NCBI RefSeq assembly: GCF_000012925.1
Contig: NC_007517.1
Coordinates: 3,930,001-3,962,000 of the forward strand
DNA length: 32,000 bases
Origin: Geobacter metallireducens GS-15
GTDB taxonomy: Bacteria; Desulfobacterota; Desulfuromonadia; Geobacterales; Geobacteraceae
Reading direction: 5' to 3'
Shown here: piece after piece, positions 2,975 through 29,664 of the stretch
Layout: each line of letters opens with the position of its first letter
Numbering within the stretch: position 1 is the first letter of the stretch
Notes under the pieces: model-generated
Told to the model about the DNA's origin: nothing
Databases searched by the model: none
The model's input: the letters and a program-made list of their open reading frames with translations, nothing else
Translations under genes and position numbers: made by a program

Positions 2975-5008
2975 ATGAACATTTCCCTGGTCTTCCCCCC
3001 CTTTCATCTCCAGTCCCTCTACAATCTCCCCCCCCTGGGACTCATCAGCCTCGCCACGGTGCTGGGTGAGGCGGGGCACCGTGCGGTCATCCGCGACCTG
3101 GTGCTGGCCCTGCGGCAGGGAAGCCTCGGCATGGGAAAGGAGCTGTACGGGGAGGCGGCACGGATGATCCTCCGGGACGATCCGGACTTGGTCGGCTTTT
3201 CCGCCCAATGCACCACCTTCCCGGCAGTCGTCCGGATCGCCCGGCTCCTCAAGGAACAAAAGCCCGACCTGCGCATCGTGGCGGGTGGGCACAACGTCTC
3301 CTTCCTCGACGTCCCCACCCTTGAGCGCTTCCCCTGGATTGACGCCGTGGTCCGGGGCGAGGGAGAGGTGACGTTCCGGGAACTGGCAGCCTCCTTTGCA
3401 GTCGGCAATGATCCTGCGGAGGTAGCGGGAGTTACCTGGCGCCGGGGCACGGAGATCGTCCGCAATCCCGACCGGGAGTTGATTGCCGACCTCGACACCC
3501 TTCCCCTCCCCGACTACACCCTCGTCCCCCCCCTGGCCAGCTACCGCGACGCCTGCGGCATCCCCCGGAGCATCGCCATCCTCGAAGTGGGGCGAGGCTG
3601 CCCCCACCGGTGCGTCTACTGCTCAGAGTCGGTCATGTGGCGGCGACGGACCCGGACCTTCTCCATTCCCCGGCTGATCCGCGAGATGGAGGAACTCCAC
3701 GGCCGCTTCGGCGCCGAGTGCCTCGTCCTCGCCTACGACCAGTTCACGGCGGACCGGCGCTTCGTGGAGGAGTTCTGCAACCGGGTCATCGATGCCCGGC
3801 TGAACCGCGTCCCCTGGTACTGCATCTCCCGGCTCGATTCCCTCGACAGGCCGCTCCTCGACCTCATGCGCGAAGCGGGGTGCGAGTCCATGTGCTACGG
3901 GATCGACTCCGGCTCCCGCAGGACCCTGGCGTTCATCGGCAAGGAGATCGACGAGGGGATCCTCTACCAGCGGGTGCGGGAGACCACCGAGGCGGGGATG
4001 GTTCCCACCCTGAGCTTTGTTATCGGCTTTCCCGAGGAGGAGCGCGAGGATATCGACCAAACCCTCTTCCTCGCCCTGAAGGCGGGAGTCCAGGGGAACA
4101 GCGCTCCCCTCGTCCAGCTCCCGACGGTCCTGGCGGGGACCGAGCTCCACCGGCGCTATACCGGCCGCCTTGTCAGGGAGGTGGACACCTACTTCTCCCT
4201 CGGCCTCGAATTCGACCATGGCCGCCGCCTGGCCGACGACGAGCGTCTCATCGATGCCGACCCCTTCCTTTTCAGTTCCTTCTACAACCTCCCCTGCGCC
4301 GGGGTTCCCCTGGCGGAGCTGGACCGGATCGCCCGGTGGTTTCCCCTCATCCTCAACGGCTACCCCAAGTCGTTCATCCTCCTCTCCCTGGCCCTCGGCC
4401 GGCCTCCCAGCAACCTCTTCCGGGAAATCCTCTCCCGGCTGGAGGAGGACGGGTGGCGCGAGGATGACCCGACGGCCGAAACCGCTTTCCTGGAGCGCTT
4501 TCCCTGCCATGCCGAAGGGCTCATGGCCGGAAGCGCCTCGTGGCCCCACTTCGCCGAAATCCTCACCTACGAGACCCTGGCGCTACGGGCGACCCATCGC
4601 GGTCCGCCCCGCGCGGACGGGGCCGGACCGCTCAAGGGCGACCCCGCTGGGGAGTGCCGGCCGGTGCTCCGGGAAGAAGTCACAGTGTCCGAATTCCGCC
4701 GGAACCTGCCGGCGATCATCGCCGACCTGAAGAGCGGCATCTTCAGGGAGTCCTACCCCCCGGAGCCGACGCTCCTCATCTTCTATCCCTCGGGGGAGAG
4801 GCTTGAGGTGATGGAGATCAACCGGTTCGGCAAGGATTTTCTCCTCCTCTGCAACGGCTTGGCCACCTGCGAGGAGATCGCGGCGACGCTGTACGGAGAG
4901 TACGGCGACGCCATGGATTCCGGCGCGTTCAGCGAAGAGTGCAAGGACGCCCTTACCGTGTTCACGGGGATGGGACTCGTCCGCGACGGTGCGGCACCCG
5001 CCCCTTGA
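2975..5008 (+). CDS. B12-binding-domain radical SAM protein with C-terminal PqqD/RRE-like domain (putative RiPP maturase)
   Basis: The N-terminal 140 aa or so look like a cobalamin-binding Rossmann module (LGLISLATVLGEAGH, DLVGFSAQCTT, IVAGGHNVSF). The radical SAM cluster motif is CPHRCVYC (Cys209/213/216, nt 3599-3622). No later Cys-rich SPASM/twitch block is present. Residues about 597-669 (nt 4763-4981; LLIFYPSGERLEVMEINRFGKDFLLLCNGLATCEEIAATLYGEYG...LTVFTGMGLV) fit the PqqD-family peptide-recognition pattern. Confidence 0.85.
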   Translation: MNISLVFPPFHLQSLYNLPPLGLISLATVLGEAGHRAVIRDLVLALRQGSLGMGKELYGEAARMILRDDPDLVGFSAQCTTFPAVVRIARLLKEQKPDLRIVAGGHNVSFLDVPTLERFPWIDAVVRGEGEVTFRELAASFAVGNDPAEVAGVTWRRGTEIVRNPDRELIADLDTLPLPDYTLVPPLASYRDACGIPRSIAILEVGRGCPHRCVYCSESVMWRRRTRTFSIPRLIREMEELHGRFGAECLVLAYDQFTADRRFVEEFCNRVIDARLNRVPWYCISRLDSLDRPLLDLMREAGCESMCYGIDSGSRRTLAFIGKEIDEGILYQRVRETTEAGMVPTLSFVIGFPEEEREDIDQTLFLALKAGVQGNSAPLVQLPTVLAGTELHRRYTGRLVREVDTYFSLGLEFDHGRRLADDERLIDADPFLFSSFYNLPCAGVPLAELDRIARWFPLILNGYPKSFILLSLALGRPPSNLFREILSRLEEDGWREDDPTAETAFLERFPCHAEGLMAGSASWPHFAEILTYETLALRATHRGPPRADGAGPLKGDPAGECRPVLREEVTVSEFRRNLPAIIADLKSGIFRESYPPEPTLLIFYPSGERLEVMEINRFGKDFLLLCNGLATCEEIAATLYGEYGDAMDSGAFSEECKDALTVFTGMGLVRDGAAPAP

Positions 5009-5045
5009 CACGCTCTTCTCATCCCACGGAAAGGAGGTGATTCCC

Positions 5046-5171
5046 GTGTTGAAGATCAGGACGATCGAATCAAAAGCCATGTCGACGGCTGCCTGTCACG
5101 GTCCGGCGTGCCATTCGCCGGCTTGCCACTCACCCGCATGTCATGCACCTGCGTGCCATGCCCCGGCATAG
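5046..5171 (+). CDS. putative RiPP precursor peptide, 41 aa, five tandem A-C-H-x-P repeats
   Basis: A GTG at 5046 lies 8 nt after AAGGAGG (5031-5037) and 37 nt after the rSAM stop. The product is (M)LKIRTIESKAMSTA-ACHGP-ACHSP-ACHSP-ACHAP-ACHAP-A. Alternative in-frame starts are TTG 5049 and ATG 5079. The 4989 start in the track would overlap the rSAM gene and has no SD. Confidence 0.7.
   Translation: MLKIRTIESKAMSTAACHGPACHSPACHSPACHAPACHAPA
5091..5165 (+). repeat. five 15-nt coding repeats (A-C-H-x-P units)
   Basis: gcc tgt cac ggt ccg / gcg tgc cat tcg ccg / gct tgc cac tca ccc / gca tgt cat gca cct / gcg tgc cat gcc ccg. The period is exact and the peptide motif is conserved, but codon choice differs in nearly every unit. 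Confidence 0.95.
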
Positions 5172-5193
5172 GAAATGATCGCTGAAGTTTTCC

Positions 5194-5229
5194 GAGCGGG
5201 TTGACGCCATGGTCTGCCCGCTCTTTTTC
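5194..5229 (+). terminator. hairpin plus T-run after the precursor ORF (possible partial terminator)
   Basis: GAGCGGG (5194-5200) pairs with CCCGCTC (5217-5223), with an inner GAC/GTC pairing, followed by TTTTT (5224-5228). A second perfect hairpin GTTCCGC-TGCT-GCGGAAC lies at 5230-5247, just before the SD of the next gene. Confidence 0.45.
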
Positions 5230-5262
5230 GTTCCGCTGCTGCGGAACCGATGAGGAGCGATT

Positions 5263-6246
5263 GTGTCGCTGCATCCCGCGGACTTCATTGAAAAACCGCC
5301 GCGCTTCCCGGTCGTCGACGGCCACGTGGACCTCGTCTACGACCTGATGCGCCGTCACCCCGGAATCCCCTTCGAGCAGGTGGCAGACGGGCAGGTAACC
5401 GCCCAATCACTAAAGAAGGGAGGAGTGTGGGTGCTGGTGGCTGCCCTCTACTGCGCCGACAGCCACAACGGTCCCGCGAGCGCCGCGCGGGAGATGCGGC
5501 GGCTCCACGACTACGCCTGCCGATACCTGGAATGGTTCGCGCTACTCCGGAGTCCCGGGGAGATGGCGGCCGCCCTCGGAGGAAGCGGCCCCCCCGGCAT
5601 CGTCTTTCTCGTCGAAAATGCCGACGCCCTGCTGGAGCTGGACCTGGACGAGGTACGGCGTTGGGGAGTGAGGGCCGTGGGGCTGACCCATGCCGGCAGA
5701 AACCGGCTGGCCGACGGCAACGGCGTTACCGACCCGAAGGGGCTGACCGCTGCGGGGAAAAGTCTGGTGAGGAGCATCGCCGGCGCTGGCCTCATCCTCG
5801 ACGTGGCTCACCTGGCCGAGCCTGGTTTCCGGGAGGTGGCTTCCCTCGTCACTGGCCCCCTCATCTCCTCCCACACGGGGCTTCGCTCCTTCTGCGACCG
5901 CCCCCGCAACCTCTCCGATCCCCAGGTGGCCGAGATTGCCCGCCGGGGAGGGGTGGTGGGAATTTCCGCCGCTCCCGAGATGCTTGTTCCCGGAGGAACG
6001 GCGACCCTCGACGACCTCTTCCGCCAGGTCGATCACGTGGTTCAGCGGCATGGACCGGAGGCGGTCGGCATCGGGAGCGATTTCGGCGGGTTCGACGACA
6101 CGGCAAAGGGAGCGGAGGACCACGGCGGACTTCCCCTCCTGGCGGAGCGCCTCCTGGGGGCGGGCTATCCCGCCGGGGCAGTGGGGCTCATCATGGGGGG
6201 AAACTGGTGCCGGATCTACGGGGGAATTCCCGGCGGACCGGCATGA
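5263..6246 (+). CDS. membrane-dipeptidase family (peptidase M19) zinc hydrolase
   Basis: GTG start with GAGGAG 4 nt upstream. Family hallmarks are VDGHVDLVYDL, VENADAL, VRAVGLTHAGRNRLADG, LILDVAHLAE, PLISSHTG...RPRNLSD and IGSDFGG. Confidence 0.8.
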   Translation: MSLHPADFIEKPPRFPVVDGHVDLVYDLMRRHPGIPFEQVADGQVTAQSLKKGGVWVLVAALYCADSHNGPASAAREMRRLHDYACRYLEWFALLRSPGEMAAALGGSGPPGIVFLVENADALLELDLDEVRRWGVRAVGLTHAGRNRLADGNGVTDPKGLTAAGKSLVRSIAGAGLILDVAHLAEPGFREVASLVTGPLISSHTGLRSFCDRPRNLSDPQVAEIARRGGVVGISAAPEMLVPGGTATLDDLFRQVDHVVQRHGPEAVGIGSDFGGFDDTAKGAEDHGGLPLLAERLLGAGYPAGAVGLIMGGNWCRIYGGIPGGPA

Positions 6247-6322: not shown

Positions 6323-6352
6323 TTGACACGCCCGACATCCCACAATTATGAT
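6323..6352 (+). promoter_or_regulatory. sigma-70-type promoter of the metal-efflux operon
   Basis: TTGACA (6323-6328), an 18-nt spacer, then TATGAT (6347-6352); alternatively N17 and TTATGA. A perfect 10-bp palindrome TTTCATGAAA at 6363-6372 lies just downstream and could be an operator. Confidence 0.5.
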
Positions 6353-6398
6353 ATTCCTCACTTTCATGAAAGCCTGGCAATTGCGTACGGGACCAGCC

Positions 6399-6752
6399 AT
6401 GTTCAACAAAATCATAGCCGTTTTGCTCATCATGGCCGTCATCACCATTGCCGGCAACGGGCTTTGTTTCGCGCAGGATAACGACCATTGCCCCCAGGCA
6501 TCCTGCGCCAAGGCCGGGACGGTTCTGAAGGCGGATTGCGGAGACGCAAGCCCCTGCTGTCCCGATGATGGCGGGGATACCGAGGGGCACTGCCACTGCT
6601 GTCTCTCCTGCCCGTGCCACGCCCCGCTGAACAGCCAGCCCCCCCTGATTTCCTATTCGCCTCTTGTCATCAGCTTGTCGTTCCTCGAACACCTCAACGC
6701 GCCACCGGACGTGTACCGCTCCATCTTTGTCCCTCCCCAGATACAAGCCTGA
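6399..6752 (+). CDS. Cys/His-rich secreted protein, first gene of the RND efflux operon
   Basis: MFNKIIAVLLIMAVITIAGNGLCFA is a Sec-type signal. The mature part carries 10 Cys and 5 His (DHCPQASC, ADCGDASPCCPDD, GHCHCCLSCPCHAP) and ends in a Pro-rich tail (PPDVYRSIFVPPQ). The SD is weak and the start is uncertain (ATG 6366 is also possible). Confidence 0.55.
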   Translation: MFNKIIAVLLIMAVITIAGNGLCFAQDNDHCPQASCAKAGTVLKADCGDASPCCPDDGGDTEGHCHCCLSCPCHAPLNSQPPLISYSPLVISLSFLEHLNAPPDVYRSIFVPPQIQA

Positions 6753-6874
6753 TCCGCTGAAGCAACGGCCCCGCAGCCGTGGGGAATTCGTGCGCCCTTA
6801 GTCCGAATTTCCACCCTTCAGCGCCACTCTGTCACCCACAATTCAACCCAGCAAATCAGCAAGGAGGTGCTGTC

Positions 6875-8182
6875 TTGTCGCGAGCGTATCGTTTCGTGCC
6901 CGGAGCGGTCCATCTGCTCCTGGCGTCATTGGTTCTTTCCCCCCAGGGAGCCTCGGGTGAAATGCACTCGCTGACCCTGCCGCAGGCTGTGGAGTATGCC
7001 CTCGTCAACAACGGCGAGCTGAAGGCGCTGCGCGCCGAAAAGGAGGTGGCCCGGGCCGGGCTGGAGCGGGCCGCGCTCTTTCCCAACCCCACCCTGGAGT
7101 TGTCCGGAGATACCGGTGCCCTGACCGGCAGTTCCGGCGAGAACGTCGTCTCAATCGGCCTTTCCCAGGAATTCCTCACCGGCGGCAAGCGGGCAAAGCG
7201 CCGGGCCGTCGCCGAGGTGGAGGCGGAGGAGGTCCGCCAGCAGATTGCCGACCGGGAAAGAACCCTTGCCCTGGAGGTGAAGAGCACGTTTGCCGAGTTC
7301 ATGCTGGCCCACAAAAGGCGGGAGCTGGCCCAGCGGGCCGTGGAACTGAACGGGAAGCTGCTGGAGATAACGCGGGAGCGCCTGGCAGCCGGGGATATCC
7401 CGGAGCTTGAGGTGAATCTCGCCCAGGTGGAGCTGGCTCGGAGCGAAGGGCGAAAAATCGAGACCGTGCGCGGGCTCAGCCCCCTTCTGGCCCGACTGCT
7501 GACCCTCCTGGGGCTCCCGACAGGGGATGAGGTCAATTTAGCCGACTCTCCCGAACGGCAGCCCGTAACTATCCCCCCCGATGAGCTCACCCGCCTCGCC
7601 CTGGAAAACCGCCCCGACCTGAAGGCGCTCCAGGCTGCCCACGACAGGGGGGACGCCGCGGTGGAACTGGCCGAGGCGGAGCGCATCCCGAATGTGATTG
7701 TTGGAGTCGGCTACACCCACGAGCAACGGGTGGACGCCACCGGCGTCGGAGAAGAAAAGACCCGCGACAACCTCCTGGGAATGAAACTTTCCATCCCGCT
7801 CCCCGTATTCGACCGGAACCAGGCCGGCATCCTCGAAGCCCGGGCCAGGGCGCAGAGCGCCGGGAACCGGCTGGAGTTCGCCCGCACGGGCGTGGCCCGG
7901 GAGATCGACGGGGACTATGCCCGGCTGGCGACGGCGGACAAGGCCCTCGACCTCTATACCGGCGGCATCCTCCCCCAGTTGGAGGAGAACCTGAAGATCA
8001 TCCAGGAGGCCTACCAGCTGGGCGAGGTGGGGATCCTCTCAGTCATCGAGGAACAGAAGAAATACATTGAGGTCCACGACGGCTACCTCGCCGCCCTTGC
8101 CGACCGGCAGACCGCCCTGGCGCGGCTCGAAGCCTCGGTGGGGGTCGATTTCCAGAACAAGACCAGCGGAGGTGCGCAGTGA
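6875..8182 (+). CDS. TolC-family outer membrane efflux protein (CzcC/CusC-like)
   Basis: LTLPQAVEYALVNNGELKALRAE..., with the two-repeat OEP architecture. TTG start at 6875, 7 nt after AAGGAGG (6861-6867). The upstream part of the ORF has no signal-like sequence. Confidence 0.85.
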   Translation: MSRAYRFVPGAVHLLLASLVLSPQGASGEMHSLTLPQAVEYALVNNGELKALRAEKEVARAGLERAALFPNPTLELSGDTGALTGSSGENVVSIGLSQEFLTGGKRAKRRAVAEVEAEEVRQQIADRERTLALEVKSTFAEFMLAHKRRELAQRAVELNGKLLEITRERLAAGDIPELEVNLAQVELARSEGRKIETVRGLSPLLARLLTLLGLPTGDEVNLADSPERQPVTIPPDELTRLALENRPDLKALQAAHDRGDAAVELAEAERIPNVIVGVGYTHEQRVDATGVGEEKTRDNLLGMKLSIPLPVFDRNQAGILEARARAQSAGNRLEFARTGVAREIDGDYARLATADKALDLYTGGILPQLEENLKIIQEAYQLGEVGILSVIEEQKKYIEVHDGYLAALADRQTALARLEASVGVDFQNKTSGGAQ

Positions 8183-9453
8183 ACAGGAAAAACGGAATCA
8201 TAATCGGCATCATCCTGGCCATGGCCGTCGGCGGTGCCTTTGTCTATCGCTCTACCCATGTGAAAGGGGGCGCCGGCGAGCACGCCGAAACGAAGGAGGC
8301 CGGCCATACGGATGAAAAGGGAGGCCACGAAGAGGGGAAGCACGAGGGAGAGAAGGAAGGTCATGAAGGCCATGATGAGCATGGGGAAGAAGGGACGATC
8401 AAGATGACCGCCGAGGTGCAGAAGCAGAACGGCGTGGCCGTTGCTCCGGCCCAAAAACAGCGGCTCGCCGGCGCGATCAGCGCCACCGGCAAGGTGGAGG
8501 CCAATGCCGACCGGATCGCCCATGTCTCGCCGCGCATCTCCGGCAAGATCGTCAGCGTCCGGGCCTCCCTCGGAGACGGCGTCGCCGCCGGGCAGCCCCT
8601 GGTGACCCTGGACAGCGTCGAACTGGGTGAGGCCCTGAACCGCTACCACCAGTCAAAGACACGGCTCGCCCTGGCCCAGTCCAATATGGACCGGATCAAG
8701 GCGCTGGTGGAGAAGAAGATTGCAGCCCGCAAGGACATCCTCCAGGCGGAGACCGACTACAAGATGGCGCAGACGGAACTCCATACCGATGAAGAACGCC
8801 TCTCCCTCTATGGCGTTTCAACCTCTGACCTCGGAAAGGCAAACCACCGGAAGCCGCTCCTGCCGGTCCGCTCCCCCATCGGCGGCATCATCACCGAAAA
8901 ACACGCCATCGTCGGCGAGCTGGCCGACCCATCCAAGAGCCTCTACACCGTGGCTGACCTTTCGTCGGTCTGGGTGATGGTGGACATCAACGAAAAAGAT
9001 CTGGTCAAGATTCACCGGGGGCAGACTGCCGCCGTCACCGTCAGCGCCTTTCCCGACCTGAAACTGAAGGGGCGGATCACCTACATCGCCGACCTGGTTG
9101 ACGAATCAACCCGCACGGTCAAGGCCCGGGTCGAGGTGGCCAATCCGGGGCGGAAGCTGAAGCCGGAGATGTTCGCCACTATTGAGTTGACGCTGGCGGC
9201 CGACGCGCCGCCGGTCCTGGCCGTCCCCGAGGATGCCCTGCAGGACCTGGACGGGAAAAAGGTGCTCTTCATCGCGGAGAAGGACTCCGAATTCGCTGCC
9301 CGTCCCGTGCAGACCGGCCGGGCGGCCGGCGGTCTGGTGGAGATCGTTTCCGGTCTGAAGGAGGGTGAGAACTACGCCGTCAAGGGCTCGTTCATCCTCA
9401 AGTCGGAGATCAAGAAGGGTGAGATGACCGACGAGCACGGCCACGGCAAATGA
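8179..9453 (+). CDS. RND efflux periplasmic adaptor (CzcB/CusB-like) with His-rich termini
   Basis: GTG start overlapping the upstream stop (GTGA). An N-terminal anchor is followed by HAETKEAGHTDEKGGHEEGKHEGEKEGHEGHDEHGEEG. Lipoyl/beta-barrel adaptor motifs are present (VSPRISGKIVSV, VRSPIGGIITE), and the C-terminus is DEHGHGK. Confidence 0.9.
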   Translation: MNRKNGIIIGIILAMAVGGAFVYRSTHVKGGAGEHAETKEAGHTDEKGGHEEGKHEGEKEGHEGHDEHGEEGTIKMTAEVQKQNGVAVAPAQKQRLAGAISATGKVEANADRIAHVSPRISGKIVSVRASLGDGVAAGQPLVTLDSVELGEALNRYHQSKTRLALAQSNMDRIKALVEKKIAARKDILQAETDYKMAQTELHTDEERLSLYGVSTSDLGKANHRKPLLPVRSPIGGIITEKHAIVGELADPSKSLYTVADLSSVWVMVDINEKDLVKIHRGQTAAVTVSAFPDLKLKGRITYIADLVDESTRTVKARVEVANPGRKLKPEMFATIELTLAADAPPVLAVPEDALQDLDGKKVLFIAEKDSEFAARPVQTGRAAGGLVEIVSGLKEGENYAVKGSFILKSEIKKGEMTDEHGHGK

Positions 9454-9458
9454 TAATA

Positions 9459-9560
9459 CCCTCTCCCTATGGGAGAGGGCTAGGGTGAGGGGGATATGTT
9501 GCTGCCTCCCTGTTTTCCCCTCATCCGGCCTTCGGCCACCTTCTCCCATGGGGAGAAGGT
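9459..9560. repeat. structured REP-like intergenic repeat, copy 2 (adaptor-pump spacer)
   Basis: It has the same two conserved modules as 148-247 but lacks the CTGATTGGCA terminal repeats. It fills most of the 132-nt spacer between the adaptor and RND pump genes. Hairpins are CCCTCTCCC-tat-GGGAGAGGG and CCTTCTCCC-atg-GGGAGAAGG. Confidence 0.8.
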
Positions 9561-9585
9561 GTTACGACTACAGGAGATACAGTTC

Positions 9586-12500
9586 ATGCTGGAAAAACTC
9601 ATTGCCTATACGTTGCGGCAGAAAGGAATGATCATCTTCCTGGCGCTGCTGATTATCGTCGCGGGACTGTATTCGTACGCGAGACTCCCCATCGACGCCT
9701 TTCCCGACGTGACCAACATCCAGGTGGAGGTTGTCAGCCACGCCGACGGCCTGTCGGCCATCGAAATTGAGAGGAACGTCACCTACCCCATCGAGATGGC
9801 CATGCGGGGGCTCCCCGACATTGAACAGATGCGCTCGGTCACCAAATTCGGCCTCTCCATCGTCACCATCGTCTTCAAGGACAACGTGGATATCTACTTC
9901 GCCCGGCAGCTGGTGTTTGAGCGACTGGCAGAGGCCCGGGAGAAGGTGCCGAAGGGAGTCGAGGTCGCCATGGGGCCCATCGGCACCGCCATGGGGGAGA
10001 TCTACCAGTACACCCTGGAAGGAAAGATGCCCCAGGATCCGCAGCAGAAGACGGCCTACCTGACCAACCTGCGGACCGTCCAGGAATGGATCGTGACCCC
10101 GCAGCTGAAGAACGTGGCCGGGGTGAACGAGATCAACTCCTTCGGCGGCTATTTCAAGCAGTACCAGGTGCTCGTGGCGCCGGAAAAGCTCCTGAAGTAC
10201 GGCATCACCGTGGATGACGTCTACACCGCCATCGGCAGCAACAACGAGAACGTGGGGGGCAACCTCCTGGAGCGGGGGACGGACCAGTACATCGTCCGCG
10301 GCGTCGGCCTGATCAAGGATGTGGGGGACATCGAGAACATTGTCCTCAGGTCGGCGGGGGGGACCCCCACCTACATCCGCGACGTGGCCCAGGTGAAGGT
10401 GGGTGAGGCGGTCCGCATGGGGGCCGCCATGAAGGACGGCAAGGATGAGTGCGTCGGCGGCATCGTCATGATGCTGCGGGGCGAGAACAGCCGCGACGTG
10501 GTGCGCCGGGTTGCGGAAAAAGTGAAGGAAATCAACGAGAACAACGTCCTGCCGGAAGGGATCAAGATCGTTCCCTATTACGACCGGAGCGACATCGTCA
10601 AGGCCAGCGTCGGCACGGTCAACAAGGCGCTCATCGAAGGTTCTATCCTGGTCCTGATCGTTCTCTATCTGCTCCTGAACAGCATCCGGGGGAGCATCGT
10701 AGTCCTGATCGCCCTCCCCCTCTCCCTCCTGGCGACGTTCGTCGTGATGAAGCTCTCGGGAATCAGCGCCAACCTCATGTCGCTGGGGGGCCTGGCCATC
10801 TCCATCGGGATGATCATCGACACCACCATCATCCAGGTGGAGAACGTGCAGCGGCACCTAAGCGAAGAAGGGGAACGCCATCCCAAACTGGTGACGGTGC
10901 TGAAGGCGGTCATGGAGGTGCGCAAACCGAGTATCTTCGGCGAAATGATCATCGCTATCACCTTCATCCCGATCCTGGCTCTGGAGGGGATCGAAGGGAA
11001 GATGTTCGGCCCCCTGGCCATCACCGTGGCCATTGCCCTCCTGGCGTCCCTGCTCCTTTCCATTTTCATCATCCCAGTGCTCTGCAGCCTCTTCCTGAAG
11101 CCGGATCCGGAAAAGGAGAGCGTCATCATGCAGCGGGCCCACCGGCTCTACGAGCCGCTCCTCGACTACGCCATGAACAAGCGGCGCGTGGTGCTCGGGG
11201 TGGCCGGAACGCTCCTGGTGGTCTCCCTCGTCATGGTGACCCGGCTCGGGACGGAGTTCATCCCTACCATGGATGAAGGCTCCTTCGACATGGATGTCTC
11301 CCTGCTCCCCGGTGTTTCCCTGGCCAAGGCCATGGAGGTCAACCAGCGGGTTGCAGAGAAACTGAAGCAGTTCCCCGAGCTGGGAACGGTGGTGTCGCGG
11401 ACCGGCCAGACCGGCGTGGCCCTGGACACCAGGGGGTCGGACAAGACCGGCTACGTGGGGATCTTCAAGCCGAAGGACGAATGGCCGCGGGACATCTCCA
11501 AGGAAGAGCTCACCAACGAGATGCGCGAGTCCCTGGAGTCCATCGCCGGCATCACCTTCGGCTTCAGCCAGCCTATCCAGTGCCGCATCGACGAGCTGGT
11601 GGCCGGAACCCGGGCGCAGCTGATCCTCAAGCTCTTCGGCGACGACATCGACGTGCTCAGTGCAAAGTCCCAGGAGATCGCCAAGGTCCTCTCCACCATC
11701 AGGGGCGGCACCGACCTGAACGCCGAAAAGGTCTCCGGACAGCCCTACCTGACCGTCAACATCGACCGGGCAAAAATCGCCCGCTACGGCCTCAACATCA
11801 GCGACGTGCAGAAGGTGATCGAAATCGCCGTTGCCGGCAAGGCGGCATCGCAGCTCTACGAGGAGAACCGCAGCTTCGACATCACGGTGCGTCTGCCGGA
11901 GGAGAAGCGCAACTCCCTGGACGCCATCAACAACCTGATCATCACCACGAAGACCGGGGTCAACGTCCCCCTCCAGCAGCTGGCCGAGGTGAAGATGATC
12001 GAAGGCCCGGTGCAGATCAGCCGCCAGGACGGGGTGCGCCGCATCGGGATCGAGATGAACATCACCGGCCGGGACATCGGCAGCTTCGTTTCCGAGGCGA
12101 AGCAGAAGATCAGGGAAGAAGTGAAGCTCCCCCCCGGTTACTACCTCACCTGGGGCGGGCAGTTCGAGAACCAGCAGCGGGCCATGAAGAAGCTGATGAT
12201 CATCGGACCGGTGGCCATCGGCCTGATCCTGCTCCTCCTCTACGTCACCTTCCGTTCGATCCGCCTGGCGTTCCTGGTCATCGCCAACCTCCCCTTTGCC
12301 CTGATCGGCGGGGTATTCGCGCTCTTCATCTCCGGGCAGTACCTGTCGGTGCCGGCCTCGGTGGGGTTCGTGGTCCTCTTCGGCGTTGCCGTCCTGAACG
12401 GCCTCGTGCTGGTGTCACGGATCTCACAACTGCGGGAGGAGGGGCTGGAACTGGAGGAGGCCATCCGCAAAGGTGCCGCCGACCGACTGCGGCCAGTGCT

Positions 12501-12690
12501 GATGACCGCCTCCATCGCCATCTTCAGCCTGATCCCCATGCTCCTGGCCGGCGGCACCGGCTCGGAGATTCAGAAACCGCTGGCAACGGTTGTCGTGGGC
12601 GGACTGGTGACGTCCACCCTGCTGACGCTTCTGGTCATTCCGTCGGTGTATGGCTGGTTTGAAAAGAGGAAGGTGGAGGAAGAGGTATGA
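9586..12690 (+). CDS. CusA/CzcA-family heavy-metal efflux RND transporter
   Basis: 1034 aa from MLEKLIAYTLRQKGMIIFLALLII, with AGGAGA upstream. It has 12-TM RND topology and the TM4 motif GGLAISIGMIIDTTIIQVEN. The longer ORF start at 9496 lies inside the repeat and was rejected. Confidence 0.9.
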   Translation: MLEKLIAYTLRQKGMIIFLALLIIVAGLYSYARLPIDAFPDVTNIQVEVVSHADGLSAIEIERNVTYPIEMAMRGLPDIEQMRSVTKFGLSIVTIVFKDNVDIYFARQLVFERLAEAREKVPKGVEVAMGPIGTAMGEIYQYTLEGKMPQDPQQKTAYLTNLRTVQEWIVTPQLKNVAGVNEINSFGGYFKQYQVLVAPEKLLKYGITVDDVYTAIGSNNENVGGNLLERGTDQYIVRGVGLIKDVGDIENIVLRSAGGTPTYIRDVAQVKVGEAVRMGAAMKDGKDECVGGIVMMLRGENSRDVVRRVAEKVKEINENNVLPEGIKIVPYYDRSDIVKASVGTVNKALIEGSILVLIVLYLLLNSIRGSIVVLIALPLSLLATFVVMKLSGISANLMSLGGLAISIGMIIDTTIIQVENVQRHLSEEGERHPKLVTVLKAVMEVRKPSIFGEMIIAITFIPILALEGIEGKMFGPLAITVAIALLASLLLSIFIIPVLCSLFLKPDPEKESVIMQRAHRLYEPLLDYAMNKRRVVLGVAGTLLVVSLVMVTRLGTEFIPTMDEGSFDMDVSLLPGVSLAKAMEVNQRVAEKLKQFPELGTVVSRTGQTGVALDTRGSDKTGYVGIFKPKDEWPRDISKEELTNEMRESLESIAGITFGFSQPIQCRIDELVAGTRAQLILKLFGDDIDVLSAKSQEIAKVLSTIRGGTDLNAEKVSGQPYLTVNIDRAKIARYGLNISDVQKVIEIAVAGKAASQLYEENRSFDITVRLPEEKRNSLDAINNLIITTKTGVNVPLQQLAEVKMIEGPVQISRQDGVRRIGIEMNITGRDIGSFVSEAKQKIREEVKLPPGYYLTWGGQFENQQRAMKKLMIIGPVAIGLILLLLYVTFRSIRLAFLVIANLPFALIGGVFALFISGQYLSVPASVGFVVLFGVAVLNGLVLVSRISQLREEGLELEEAIRKGAADRLRPVLMTASIAIFSLIPMLLAGGTGSEIQKPLATVVVGGLVTSTLLTLLVIPSVYGWFEKRKVEEEV

Positions 12691-28840: not shown

Positions 28841-28917
28841 TGGCGCGCTCGAAGAGATTCGAACTCCTGACCCCCAGATTCGTAGTCTGGTGCTCTATCC
28901 AGCTGAGCTACGAGCGC
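28841..28917 (-). tRNA. tRNA-Arg (anticodon ACG)
   Basis: The reverse complement GCGCTCGTAGCTCAGCTGGATAGAGCACCAGACTACGAATCTGGGGGTCAGGAGTTCGAATCTCTTCGAGCGCGCCA folds as a 77-nt cloverleaf. The anticodon loop is CUACGAA and CCA is encoded. Confidence 0.95.
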
Positions 28918-29465: not shown

Positions 29466-29558
29466 TGGCGGAGAGAGAGGGATTCGAACCCTCGATACCG
29501 GTTTCCCAGTATACTCGCTTAGCAGGCGAGCGCCTTCGACCTACTCGGCCATCTCTCC
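29466..29558 (-). tRNA. tRNA-Ser (anticodon GCU)
   Basis: The reverse complement is GGAGAGATGGCCGAGTAGGTCGAAGGCGCTCGCCTGCTAAGCGAG...GAGGGTTCGAATCCCTCTCTCTCCGCCA, 93 nt with a long variable arm and CCA encoded. Confidence 0.95.
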
Positions 29559-29578: not shown

Positions 29579-29664
29579 TGGCGGAGGAGGTAGGATTCGA
29601 ACCCACGGAACTTTCGTTCAACGGTTTTCAAGACCGCCGCCTTAAACCACTCGGCCACTCCTCC
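29579..29664 (-). tRNA. tRNA-Ser (anticodon UGA)
   Basis: The reverse complement is GGAGGAGTGGCCGAGTGGTTTAAGGCGGCGGTCTTGAAAACCGT...GTGGGTTCGAATCCTACCTCCTCCGCCA, 86 nt with a long variable arm and CCA encoded. Confidence 0.9.

Follow-up and report, generated by a model that had tools for sequence, protein, structure and literature searches.

A conserved radical SAM operon with a Cys-His repeat precursor peptide in Geobacter metallireducens and its possible role in an oxygen-independent route to thiohistidine-type metabolites

Introduction

The closest described counterparts of the system reported here are the pathways to ovothiol and ovoselenol, the peptide-derived metabolites pyrroloquinoline quinone (PQQ) and mycofactocin, and ribosomal peptides matured by cobalamin (B12)-dependent radical S-adenosylmethionine (SAM) enzymes. 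Our subject is a three-gene operon in a stretch of 32,000 nucleotides of Geobacter metallireducens GS-15 (contig NC_007517.1, positions 3,930,001 to 3,962,000; hereafter, the window), in which genes for a B12-type radical SAM enzyme, a short Cys-His repeat peptide, and an M19 dipeptidase follow one another. The operon is genuine and vertically conserved in strictly anaerobic Thermodesulfobacteriota, and the three-gene unit of G. metallireducens is a reduced form of a larger conserved gene set. A tentative reading, to which we give slightly less than even confidence, is that the radical SAM enzyme links the chalcogen of Cys or selenocysteine (Sec) to His, and that peptidases, a lyase, and a methyltransferase then release 5-thiohistidine, 5-selenohistidine, or ovothiol.

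In the ovothiol and ovoselenol pathways (OvoA, OvoB, and OvoC/OvoM; OvsA/OvsM), the reacting pair is the one proposed here, i.e., Cys (or a selenium donor) and the imidazole of His, and sulfur and selenium forms are found in both cases. Relatives of the operon cluster with a methyltransferase homologous to OvsM, OvoM, and the C-terminal domain of OvoA, and with a pyridoxal phosphate (PLP)-dependent enzyme of the C-S-lyase type, which is analogous to OvoB but belongs to another PLP family. However, OvoA and OvsA are O2-dependent non-haem-iron enzymes that act on free amino acids, whereas in the operon family a radical SAM enzyme holds the conserved position, the reacting residues would belong to a ribosomal peptide, peptidases would be needed, and the hosts are strict anaerobes. 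The selenium of ovoselenol comes from a selenosugar, whereas UGA-encoded Sec is proposed here.

PQQ (PqqA/D/E/F) and mycofactocin (MftA/B/C/E) have in common with the operon a short precursor, a PqqD-fold element for recognising ribosomally made peptides that are modified after translation (RiPPs), namely the RiPP recognition element (RRE), and the absence of an exporter; the linking of two adjacent side chains by a radical SAM enzyme and the proteolytic release of a small molecule would also be shared. They differ in that the enzyme of the operon is of class B, with a cobalamin domain, with no SPASM or auxiliary-cluster domain, and with the RRE fused to its C-terminus. The linked residues are Glu-Tyr or Val-Tyr in the known pathways and would be Cys/Sec-His, in 2-12 cassettes, in the operon family, where M19 stands in place of PqqF/G or a creatininase-type enzyme.

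The B12-dependent radical SAM enzymes of RiPP pathways (ApyD of aminopyruvatides, PbsB of biphenomycin-like peptides, PoyB/C, and TbtI) likewise act on leader-bearing ribosomal peptides, and ApyD is the closest family in sequence. However, the window enzyme scores far under the ApyD equivalog cut-off, has another precursor and gene set, and is the sole universally conserved modifying enzyme, accompanied by neither a multinuclear non-haem iron-dependent oxidative enzyme (MNIO) nor a cytochrome P450. Sulfur can be placed on a histidine imidazole without O2 by the anaerobic ergothioneine routes EanA/EanB and the metallopterin-dependent MES, as cited in PMC11030361. These differ in acting on C2 of free hercynine, in using a persulfide or a Mo/W cofactor, in involving neither a peptide scaffold nor a radical SAM enzyme, and in giving ergothioneine-type rather than ovothiol-type products. 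Among thiohistidines, a 2024 paper and a review of September 2026 give O2-independent routes for ergothioneine alone.

The operon and its precursor peptide

The radical SAM gene (2975-5008, + strand) encodes 677 amino acids (aa), 100% identical to ABB33709.1/WP_004513660.1 of G. metallireducens, which is annotated merely as "radical SAM protein". It is followed after 37 nucleotides (nt) by the precursor peptide gene (5046-5171, +; 41 aa; GTG start at 5046, stop at 5169-5171) and, after a further 91 nt, by the gene for an M19 (renal-dipeptidase family) zinc dipeptidase (5263-6246, +; 327 aa; ABB33710.1). The original prediction, made from these letters alone, had described three co-directional genes with just these gaps, the second of them a 41-aa open reading frame (ORF) with a strong Shine-Dalgarno sequence and a C-terminal (A-C-H-x-P)x5-A; the ORF table and the sequence agree with it exactly. 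The Shine-Dalgarno sequence GGAGG lies at 5033-5037 (+), 8 nt ahead of the start. Between the precursor and the M19 gene, a consensus scan picked out a terminator- or attenuator-like hairpin with a T-run (5194-5227, +; a pattern match only), with which a high ratio of precursor to enzyme transcript would fit. In an Rfam scan of the window, neither a riboswitch nor any other known RNA turned up close to the operon; the only matches were three tRNAs at 28.8-29.7 kb.

The precursor reads MLKIRTIESKAMSTAA (leader, nt 5046-5093, +), followed by five C-H-[G/S/A]-P-A units, namely CHGPA, CHSPA, CHSPA, CHAPA, and CHAPA (core, nt 5094-5168, +), and its last 26 residues are the (ACHxP)x5-A noted above. 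The pattern TGY-CAY-NNN-CCN-NNN-TGY-CAY-NNN-CC occurs four times in the 32-kb window, always within the precursor ORF, with 0.00 occurrences expected from 100 shuffles. According to Tandem Repeats Finder, the core units are just 74% identical at the DNA level while the peptide repeat is kept intact; selection therefore acts on the protein. The two neighbouring genes carry consecutive GenBank accessions (ABB33709/ABB33710), so that the precursor appears to be unannotated, and neither a search by 5-residue words nor an exact look-up found it in a collection of 15 billion proteins (5.8 billion clusters). A frame that is neither annotated nor present in protein databases might be a chance product of the spacer, in which case the radical SAM enzyme and M19 would act on unrelated substrates. 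This explanation is refuted by the comparative data that follow, and its probability is negligible.

Conservation of the precursor in relatives

A pattern and tblastn scan of 185,579 genomes, one per GTDB species, yielded 274 relatives of the radical SAM enzyme, and the neighbourhood counts given below use the best 80. These are 48-92% identical to the window enzyme, and all belong to Thermodesulfobacteriota (Geobacteraceae, Desulfuromonadales, Desulfobacterales, Desulfatiglandales, Syntrophobacterales, and Desulfovibrionales). Conserved neighbours were identified by all-against-all clustering of the ORFs in the 80 loci and then by tblastn.

As would be expected from the idea that homologous radical SAM genes keep an adjacent Cys/His-repeat ORF, a short leader-plus-cassette ORF lies directly downstream in 71 of the 80 loci. 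The count comes from a pattern match, which missed one precursor seen by other means (L054); the remaining loci mostly reflect contig truncation or have no recognisable peptide. Homologous precursors consist of a MLKIKKVEKK-type leader and 2-12 (median 6) C-H-[A/G/S]-P-x units. Across 381 cassettes, Cys and His are invariant and Pro is fixed, position 5 is free, and position 3 is occupied by A (300), G (51), or S (30). Conservation of the leader confirms GTG 5046 as the start, and the Shine-Dalgarno context AAAGGAGGTGA recurs in homologous loci. Amino acid conservation with synonymous DNA divergence across several orders, the conserved Shine-Dalgarno sequence and leader, the expected motif count of 0, and the RRE fused to the neighbouring enzyme all speak against a chance frame. 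The co-inherited precursor and the RRE likewise support the proposal that the genes form a unit for ribosomal peptide maturation, in which the peptide modification itself is predicted.

The radical SAM enzyme and its leader-recognition domain

The first gene had been taken to encode a B12-radical SAM enzyme with a fused PqqD-like domain. The enzyme assignment holds: Pfam matches the B12-binding Rossmann domain (PF02310; aa 16-138; 3020-3388, +) at 59.4 bits against a cut-off of 32.1 and the radical SAM core (PF04055; aa 204-366; 3584-4072, +) at 64 bits. Residues C209, C213, and C216 of the CxxxCxxC motif (nt 3599-3622, +) are invariant across 120 homologues. The full-length AlphaFold2 (AF2) model (mean predicted local distance difference test, pLDDT, 87) begins with a Rossmann domain and a partial TIM barrel; a helical domain (~aa 420-541) follows, and a disordered linker (aa 544-558) joins this to a compact C-terminal domain (aa 563-671). 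The solved structures nearest to it by Foldseek are all cobalamin-dependent radical SAM enzymes, i.e., TokK, CysS, TsrM, AprD4, MgmA, and OxsB, with E-values of 1e-18 to 1e-23 for TokK, CysS, TsrM, and OxsB. By domains, motif, and modelled fold, the enzyme is a class B (cobalamin-dependent) radical SAM enzyme; cobalamin binding is predicted. No SPASM or Fer4 domain was matched in Pfam or NCBIfam, and in the model the C-terminal part is helical and then continues into the RRE, with no SPASM/twitch domain of the kind found in sacti- and ranthipeptide maturases. No curated NCBIfam family reaches its threshold: the best match is ApyD (NF050148), with 258.2 bits against a cut-off of 750 over model positions 12-435 of 645, and the BchE model scores 164 bits. 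In addition to the CxxxCxxC motif, nine Cys residues (C79, C194, C249, C268, C283, C303, C307, C441, and C656) are 96-100% conserved in the 120 homologues, which is unusual for a class B enzyme; they might bind an auxiliary Fe-S cluster or form disulfides.

The claim of a PqqD-like domain (aa ~563-671; 4661-4987, +) stands for the family and the fold, but not for the window protein taken alone, whose domain scores 17-18 bits and thus remains below the Pfam PqqD threshold of 23.4. PqqD is matched by 19 of 20 homologous C-terminal domains (best E-value 4e-6). The AF2 model of the domain (pLDDT 92) has a beta3-plus-winged-helix layout, and its top Foldseek matches are TglI, TbiB1 (with leader), lasso B1, PqqD, and ThcOx, with template modelling (TM) scores of 0.54-0.69 for the first four. 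An RRE profile run against the sequences of the PDB gave insignificant matches only. Identification of the domain as an RRE is supported at the level of the family and, from the model, of the fold.

It should be noted that the best family and fold matches of the enzyme are methylases: ApyD (beta-methyl-Tyr), TokK, CysS, TsrM, and MgmA. The enzyme may accordingly be a cobalamin-dependent C-methyltransferase that modifies an unactivated carbon in each cassette, either Cys C-beta (giving beta-methyl-Cys or penicillamine), a ring carbon of His, or Ala/Pro. This would result either in a poly-methylated peptide or, once M19 and the M3 peptidase described below had digested it, in a methylated amino acid in free form, for instance penicillamine. 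B12-dependent radical SAM enzymes in RiPP pathways typically methylate repeated sites in an iterative manner, which adds to the case for this explanation. Clavusporins are cited as an iteratively methylated example in PMC12257519. Furthermore, de novo penicillamine (C-3 dimethylated Cys), with no enzyme assigned, has been measured in Geobacter sulfurreducens (PMC9874932), and a B12-dependent radical SAM C-methylase is an obvious candidate class for its synthesis. However, G. sulfurreducens is not among the best 80 loci (which reach down to 48% identity) and appears to be without the cluster, and its penicillamine arose rapidly when washed cells were given free labelled cysteine (PMC9874932); for these two reasons, it probably has another source. 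C-methylation also leaves unexplained the invariant His beside Cys, the co-clustered N-methyltransferase of the thio/selenohistidine type, and the recurring SufS-like lyase that lacks the catalytic Cys. We regard C-methylation as unlikely, though a serious competitor.

Selenocysteine variants of the precursor

In approximately 17 genome loci and 33 metagenome contigs, an in-frame TGA occupies the Cys position (U-H-A-P). The genome loci are L055, L060, L063-L070, L073, L074, and L077-L080 (e.g., L064:4802-4918), together with L047:8067-8170; the metagenome contigs are L081-L113. Precursors of the Syntrophobacteraceae type have the usual leader and end in ...TYVVPT-TGA-CAY-GCN-CCN-ACN-GAA-TCTCCGGTYCGGAGA-TAA. 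The codons after the TGA vary only synonymously (or from Ala to Gly), appearing as CAC/CAT, GCA/GCC/GCT, and CCC/CCA/CCG, whereas the hairpin TCTCCGGTYCGGAGA, which lies 15 nt downstream of the TGA and resembles a selenocysteine insertion sequence (SECIS), does not vary at any position, not even at wobble positions. The distance of its loop (GUU or GUC) from the UGA is ~22-24 nt, which matches bacterial SECIS elements of the fdhF type. L047 has a different stem, with the position of the GUU loop unchanged.

A scan of metagenomes with the pattern TGA-CAY-GSN-CCN-N7-hairpin returned 33 contigs (25 distinct), all with the leader upstream; every contig of sufficient length carries the radical SAM gene before the match, M19 after it, or both. 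The free codon of the pattern encodes Thr in 24 of 25 contexts, written as ACG, ACA, or ACT. Mixed peptides with both C-H-x-P and U-H-A-P units are found in L047, L060, L092, L093, and L105, and L055 and L070 each have one Cys-type and one Sec-type peptide. For such short sequences, the folding energies of the hairpins are indistinguishable from those of shuffles and hence uninformative, and the argument therefore rests on position, invariance, and coding signal. From these features, the TGA-bearing precursors very probably encode Sec. The exchange of Cys and Sec at a key position indicates that the chalcogen is the functional atom.

In the precursor of one Geobacter sp. (L002:8115-8300), the 5-residue period (xxAPA) is kept and most Cys-His pairs are lost. 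Its core contains three in-frame TGAs, two of which are followed by His-Gly-Pro, and no canonical hairpin. This degenerate core is ambiguous; it could represent a multi-Sec peptide or a decaying gene.

Accessory genes and the fate of the peptide

An M19 homologue is present in 53 of the 80 loci, usually as the next or next-but-one gene. The window protein, which had been called a metallo-dipeptidase homolog, matches PF01244 at 217.6 bits (cut-off 26; 3e-64), and when it is aligned to Sco3058, the metal-binding and catalytic residues (HxD, His, His, and Asp) are conserved, and so is the carboxylate-binding Arg, whose partner is the C-terminal carboxylate of a substrate; the bridging Glu was assigned by eye (LVENAD), as the aligner places this segment differently. 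Because the active site is intact and retains the carboxylate-binding Arg, the enzyme should act on a substrate of dipeptide size.

A methyltransferase with a Trm112-type zinc ribbon is encoded between the peptide and the M19 gene in 33 of the 80 loci; it is absent from the window operon. All 26 methyltransferases scanned match TIGR04345 (ovoA_Cterm; best 2.6e-36). In a profile search against the whole PDB, the leading matches are OvsM (1.4e-33), the C-terminal domain of OvoA (3.3e-32), and OvoM (9e-30), the next methyltransferase following at 2e-11, about 20 orders of magnitude behind. Included in the match are an N-terminal segment specific to the family (YE..L...Y) and the SPY(T/S)W...W(I/L)GG motif. 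OvsM is a 5-selenohistidine N-methyltransferase, which reportedly does not methylate plain histidine (PMC11030361).

In 19 of the 80 loci, but not in the window, a convergent gene after M19 encodes a class-V PLP enzyme that resembles SufS/CsdA (1e-43 to 5b7s) and keeps the PLP-binding Lys (HK). The GHHCA loop with the catalytic Cys of desulfurases is deleted in 19/19 of these enzymes, and because this loop is missing, the enzyme looks like a lyase. It also matches C-DES, a cystine C-S lyase of the same family, at 2e-23. Two IscS-type genes that fell into the same "class V" cluster (L010 and L032) were set aside as housekeeping genes; they keep the SSGSAC loop and are more than 3.5 kb away. An M3 oligoendopeptidase occurs in 11 of the 80 loci, six of which are without M19. 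Twelve loci, all of Geobacteraceae and not including the window, have a divergent gene for a nitroreductase-family flavoprotein just upstream of the radical SAM gene (L003, L005-L007, L009, L010, L012, L017, L019, L022, L032, and L052). The downstream genes of loci that have neither methyltransferase nor M19 (Smr, OmpA-like, DUF401, and another radical SAM gene) were dismissed as lineage-specific context.

Among the annotated conserved neighbour clusters, there is no exporter or transporter, immunity gene, leader protease, or signal peptide, and the absence of an exporter, immunity gene, and leader protease fits an intracellular metabolite. Nor do these clusters include a sulfoxide/selenoxide synthase of the OvoA/OvsA type (FGE-sulfatase/DinB fold), although the rest of the genomes was not searched for one. 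The accessory genes suggest that the end product is a small molecule set free from the peptide (thiohistidine), not a mature peptide.

It is also conceivable that the mature product is the peptide itself, i.e., a redox peptide or a binder of soft metals, similar to a metallothionein or chalkophore, that is rich in thiols and imidazoles (or Cys-His cross-linked and N-methylated) and that M19 only trims or recycles. Tandem Cys-His units are classic ligands of Cu(I), Zn, Ni, and Hg; moreover, next to the window operon lie the genes for a secreted protein rich in Cys and His and for an efflux system of the czcCBA type, and exchange of Sec for Cys is known in metal- and redox-active sites too. However, G. 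hydrogenophilus, the sister species, is the only one to share this neighbourhood, which the other 79 loci lack and which has its own promoter-like site. A peptide product also fits poorly with the neighbour clusters, in which export and leader-cleavage functions were not seen, and with M19, which needs a free N- and C-terminus on a dipeptide. Together, M19, the M3 oligopeptidase, and a lyase that requires a free Cys amino group suggest full disassembly of the peptide. We therefore consider a peptide end product rather improbable.

Proposed pathway

In the pathway that we tentatively favour, leading to thiohistidine-type products, the RRE would dock the precursor leader, and in each cassette the radical SAM enzyme would oxidatively join the sulfur of Cys (or the selenium of Sec) to a ring carbon of the adjacent His imidazole. 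Formation of such a chalcogen-imidazole bond would be a net two-electron oxidation and the O2-independent counterpart of the OvoA/OvsA reaction; because the hosts are anaerobes, the O2-dependent chemistry of OvoA is unavailable to them. Oligopeptidases, M3 in some relatives and housekeeping enzymes otherwise, would then dismantle the scaffold, and M19 would open the residual cross-linked Cys-His dipeptide. A PLP beta-lyase (the SufS-like enzyme in 19/80 relatives, elsewhere perhaps a general lyase) would cut the Cys C-beta-S bond to give 5-thiohistidine, which an OvoM/OvsM-type methyltransferase would convert to ovothiol A in 33/80 relatives. This proposal parallels the order from OvoA to OvoB to OvoC described in PMC12631010, with the O2-dependent step replaced. 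A precedent is the B12-dependent radical SAM enzyme PbsB, which introduces an oxidative cross-link at aromatic carbons in place of a methylation (PMC12257519). Since only the radical SAM enzyme, the peptide, and M19 are clustered in G. metallireducens, its product would be 5-thiohistidine or something closely derived from it, with five molecules from each peptide, and unmethylated unless a methyltransferase is encoded elsewhere. Sec-type precursors would lead to 5-selenohistidine, with selenium delivered via UGA decoding.

Several points weigh against this pathway. Every step after leader binding is deduced from gene content. Among characterised enzymes, those closest to the radical SAM enzyme are C-methyltransferases (ApyD by its model score of 258 bits; TokK and CysS by fold), and no report of a C-S bond-forming B12-dependent radical SAM enzyme was found. 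Neither the methyltransferase nor the lyase is present in the window operon or in most Geobacteraceae loci, and the lyase-like enzyme is not homologous to OvoB. The first member of the methyltransferase family scores 89.8 bits on TIGR04345, compared with an equivalog cut-off of 170, and because of the extra Trm112-type zinc ribbon, its substrate may be different (e.g., a peptide-bound residue). Finally, the yield of one Sec-type peptide is just one product molecule.

Surroundings of the operon in the window

Upstream of the operon, a PLP gene on the opposite strand (1681-2844, -) was considered as the pathway lyase and rejected: it encodes a true L-threonine aldolase (9e-152 to PDB 5vye) and is conserved only in the sister species. 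Its longest ORF extends ~40 residues beyond the N-terminal homology, and the true start is probably further downstream.

Downstream, a 134-aa ORF (6348-6752, +) has an N-terminal hydrophobic segment, a Cys/His-rich stretch (...GHCHCCLSCPCHAPLN...), and one chance C-H-A-P. It directly precedes the czcC/B/A-like efflux genes (6779-12690), with a good promoter-like site at 6323-6352, and its product probably belongs to the efflux system as a small component that binds metal. A link between metal efflux and the radical SAM operon was discarded, given that only G. hydrogenophilus shares this ORF and czcCBA, and that they have a promoter-like site of their own. Two direct copies (142-251 and 9453-9564) of a palindrome-rich intergenic repeat of ~110 nt are 88-90% identical and give the spurious translation "...LIRPSATF..GEKV..."; of these, the second is situated between czcB and czcA, where it runs across the start of the longest czcA ORF (9496). 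The three tRNA genes (Rfam RF00005) are located at 28844-28917, 29469-29558, and 29582-29664, all on the - strand.

Significance

The assembly of a radical SAM enzyme, an RRE, a precursor, and a peptidase is a known type of system; what would be new is the predicted chemistry, together with the Sec-encoded precursors. The original prediction had recognised no established RiPP class in the Cys-His-x-Pro core, and this agrees with the lack of an NCBIfam model at threshold and of a SPASM domain. No description of the system was found in the searchable literature, which does not cover subscription-only papers, so that a prior description is possible; a literature search with motif strings gave only noise.

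Naturally Sec-encoding RiPP-like precursors would be of independent interest whatever the product, and they would come with a built-in isotopic and chemical handle. The precursor is missing from the reference annotation as well as from the collection of 15 billion proteins, and the family shows what standard gene calling hides. G. metallireducens is, moreover, genetically tractable. On a broader scale, and with more reserve than for the pathway itself, it is possible that anaerobes make ovothiol-type antioxidants on a ribosomal template by means of a B12-dependent radical SAM enzyme, with a Sec version in Syntrophobacteraceae and some related lineages leading to 5-selenohistidine. If true, this would be the first O2-independent route to ovothiol-type metabolites, the first case of a B12-dependent radical SAM enzyme forming C-S or C-Se bonds (a new reaction type for cobalamin-dependent radical SAM enzymes), and the first small selenometabolite whose selenium arrives via the genetic code. 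It would also add a member with a multi-copy core to peptide-derived metabolites such as PQQ and mycofactocin, and would explain the supply of such thiols in anaerobes, given that in the searchable literature ovothiol and ovoselenol otherwise arise only via O2-dependent iron enzymes.

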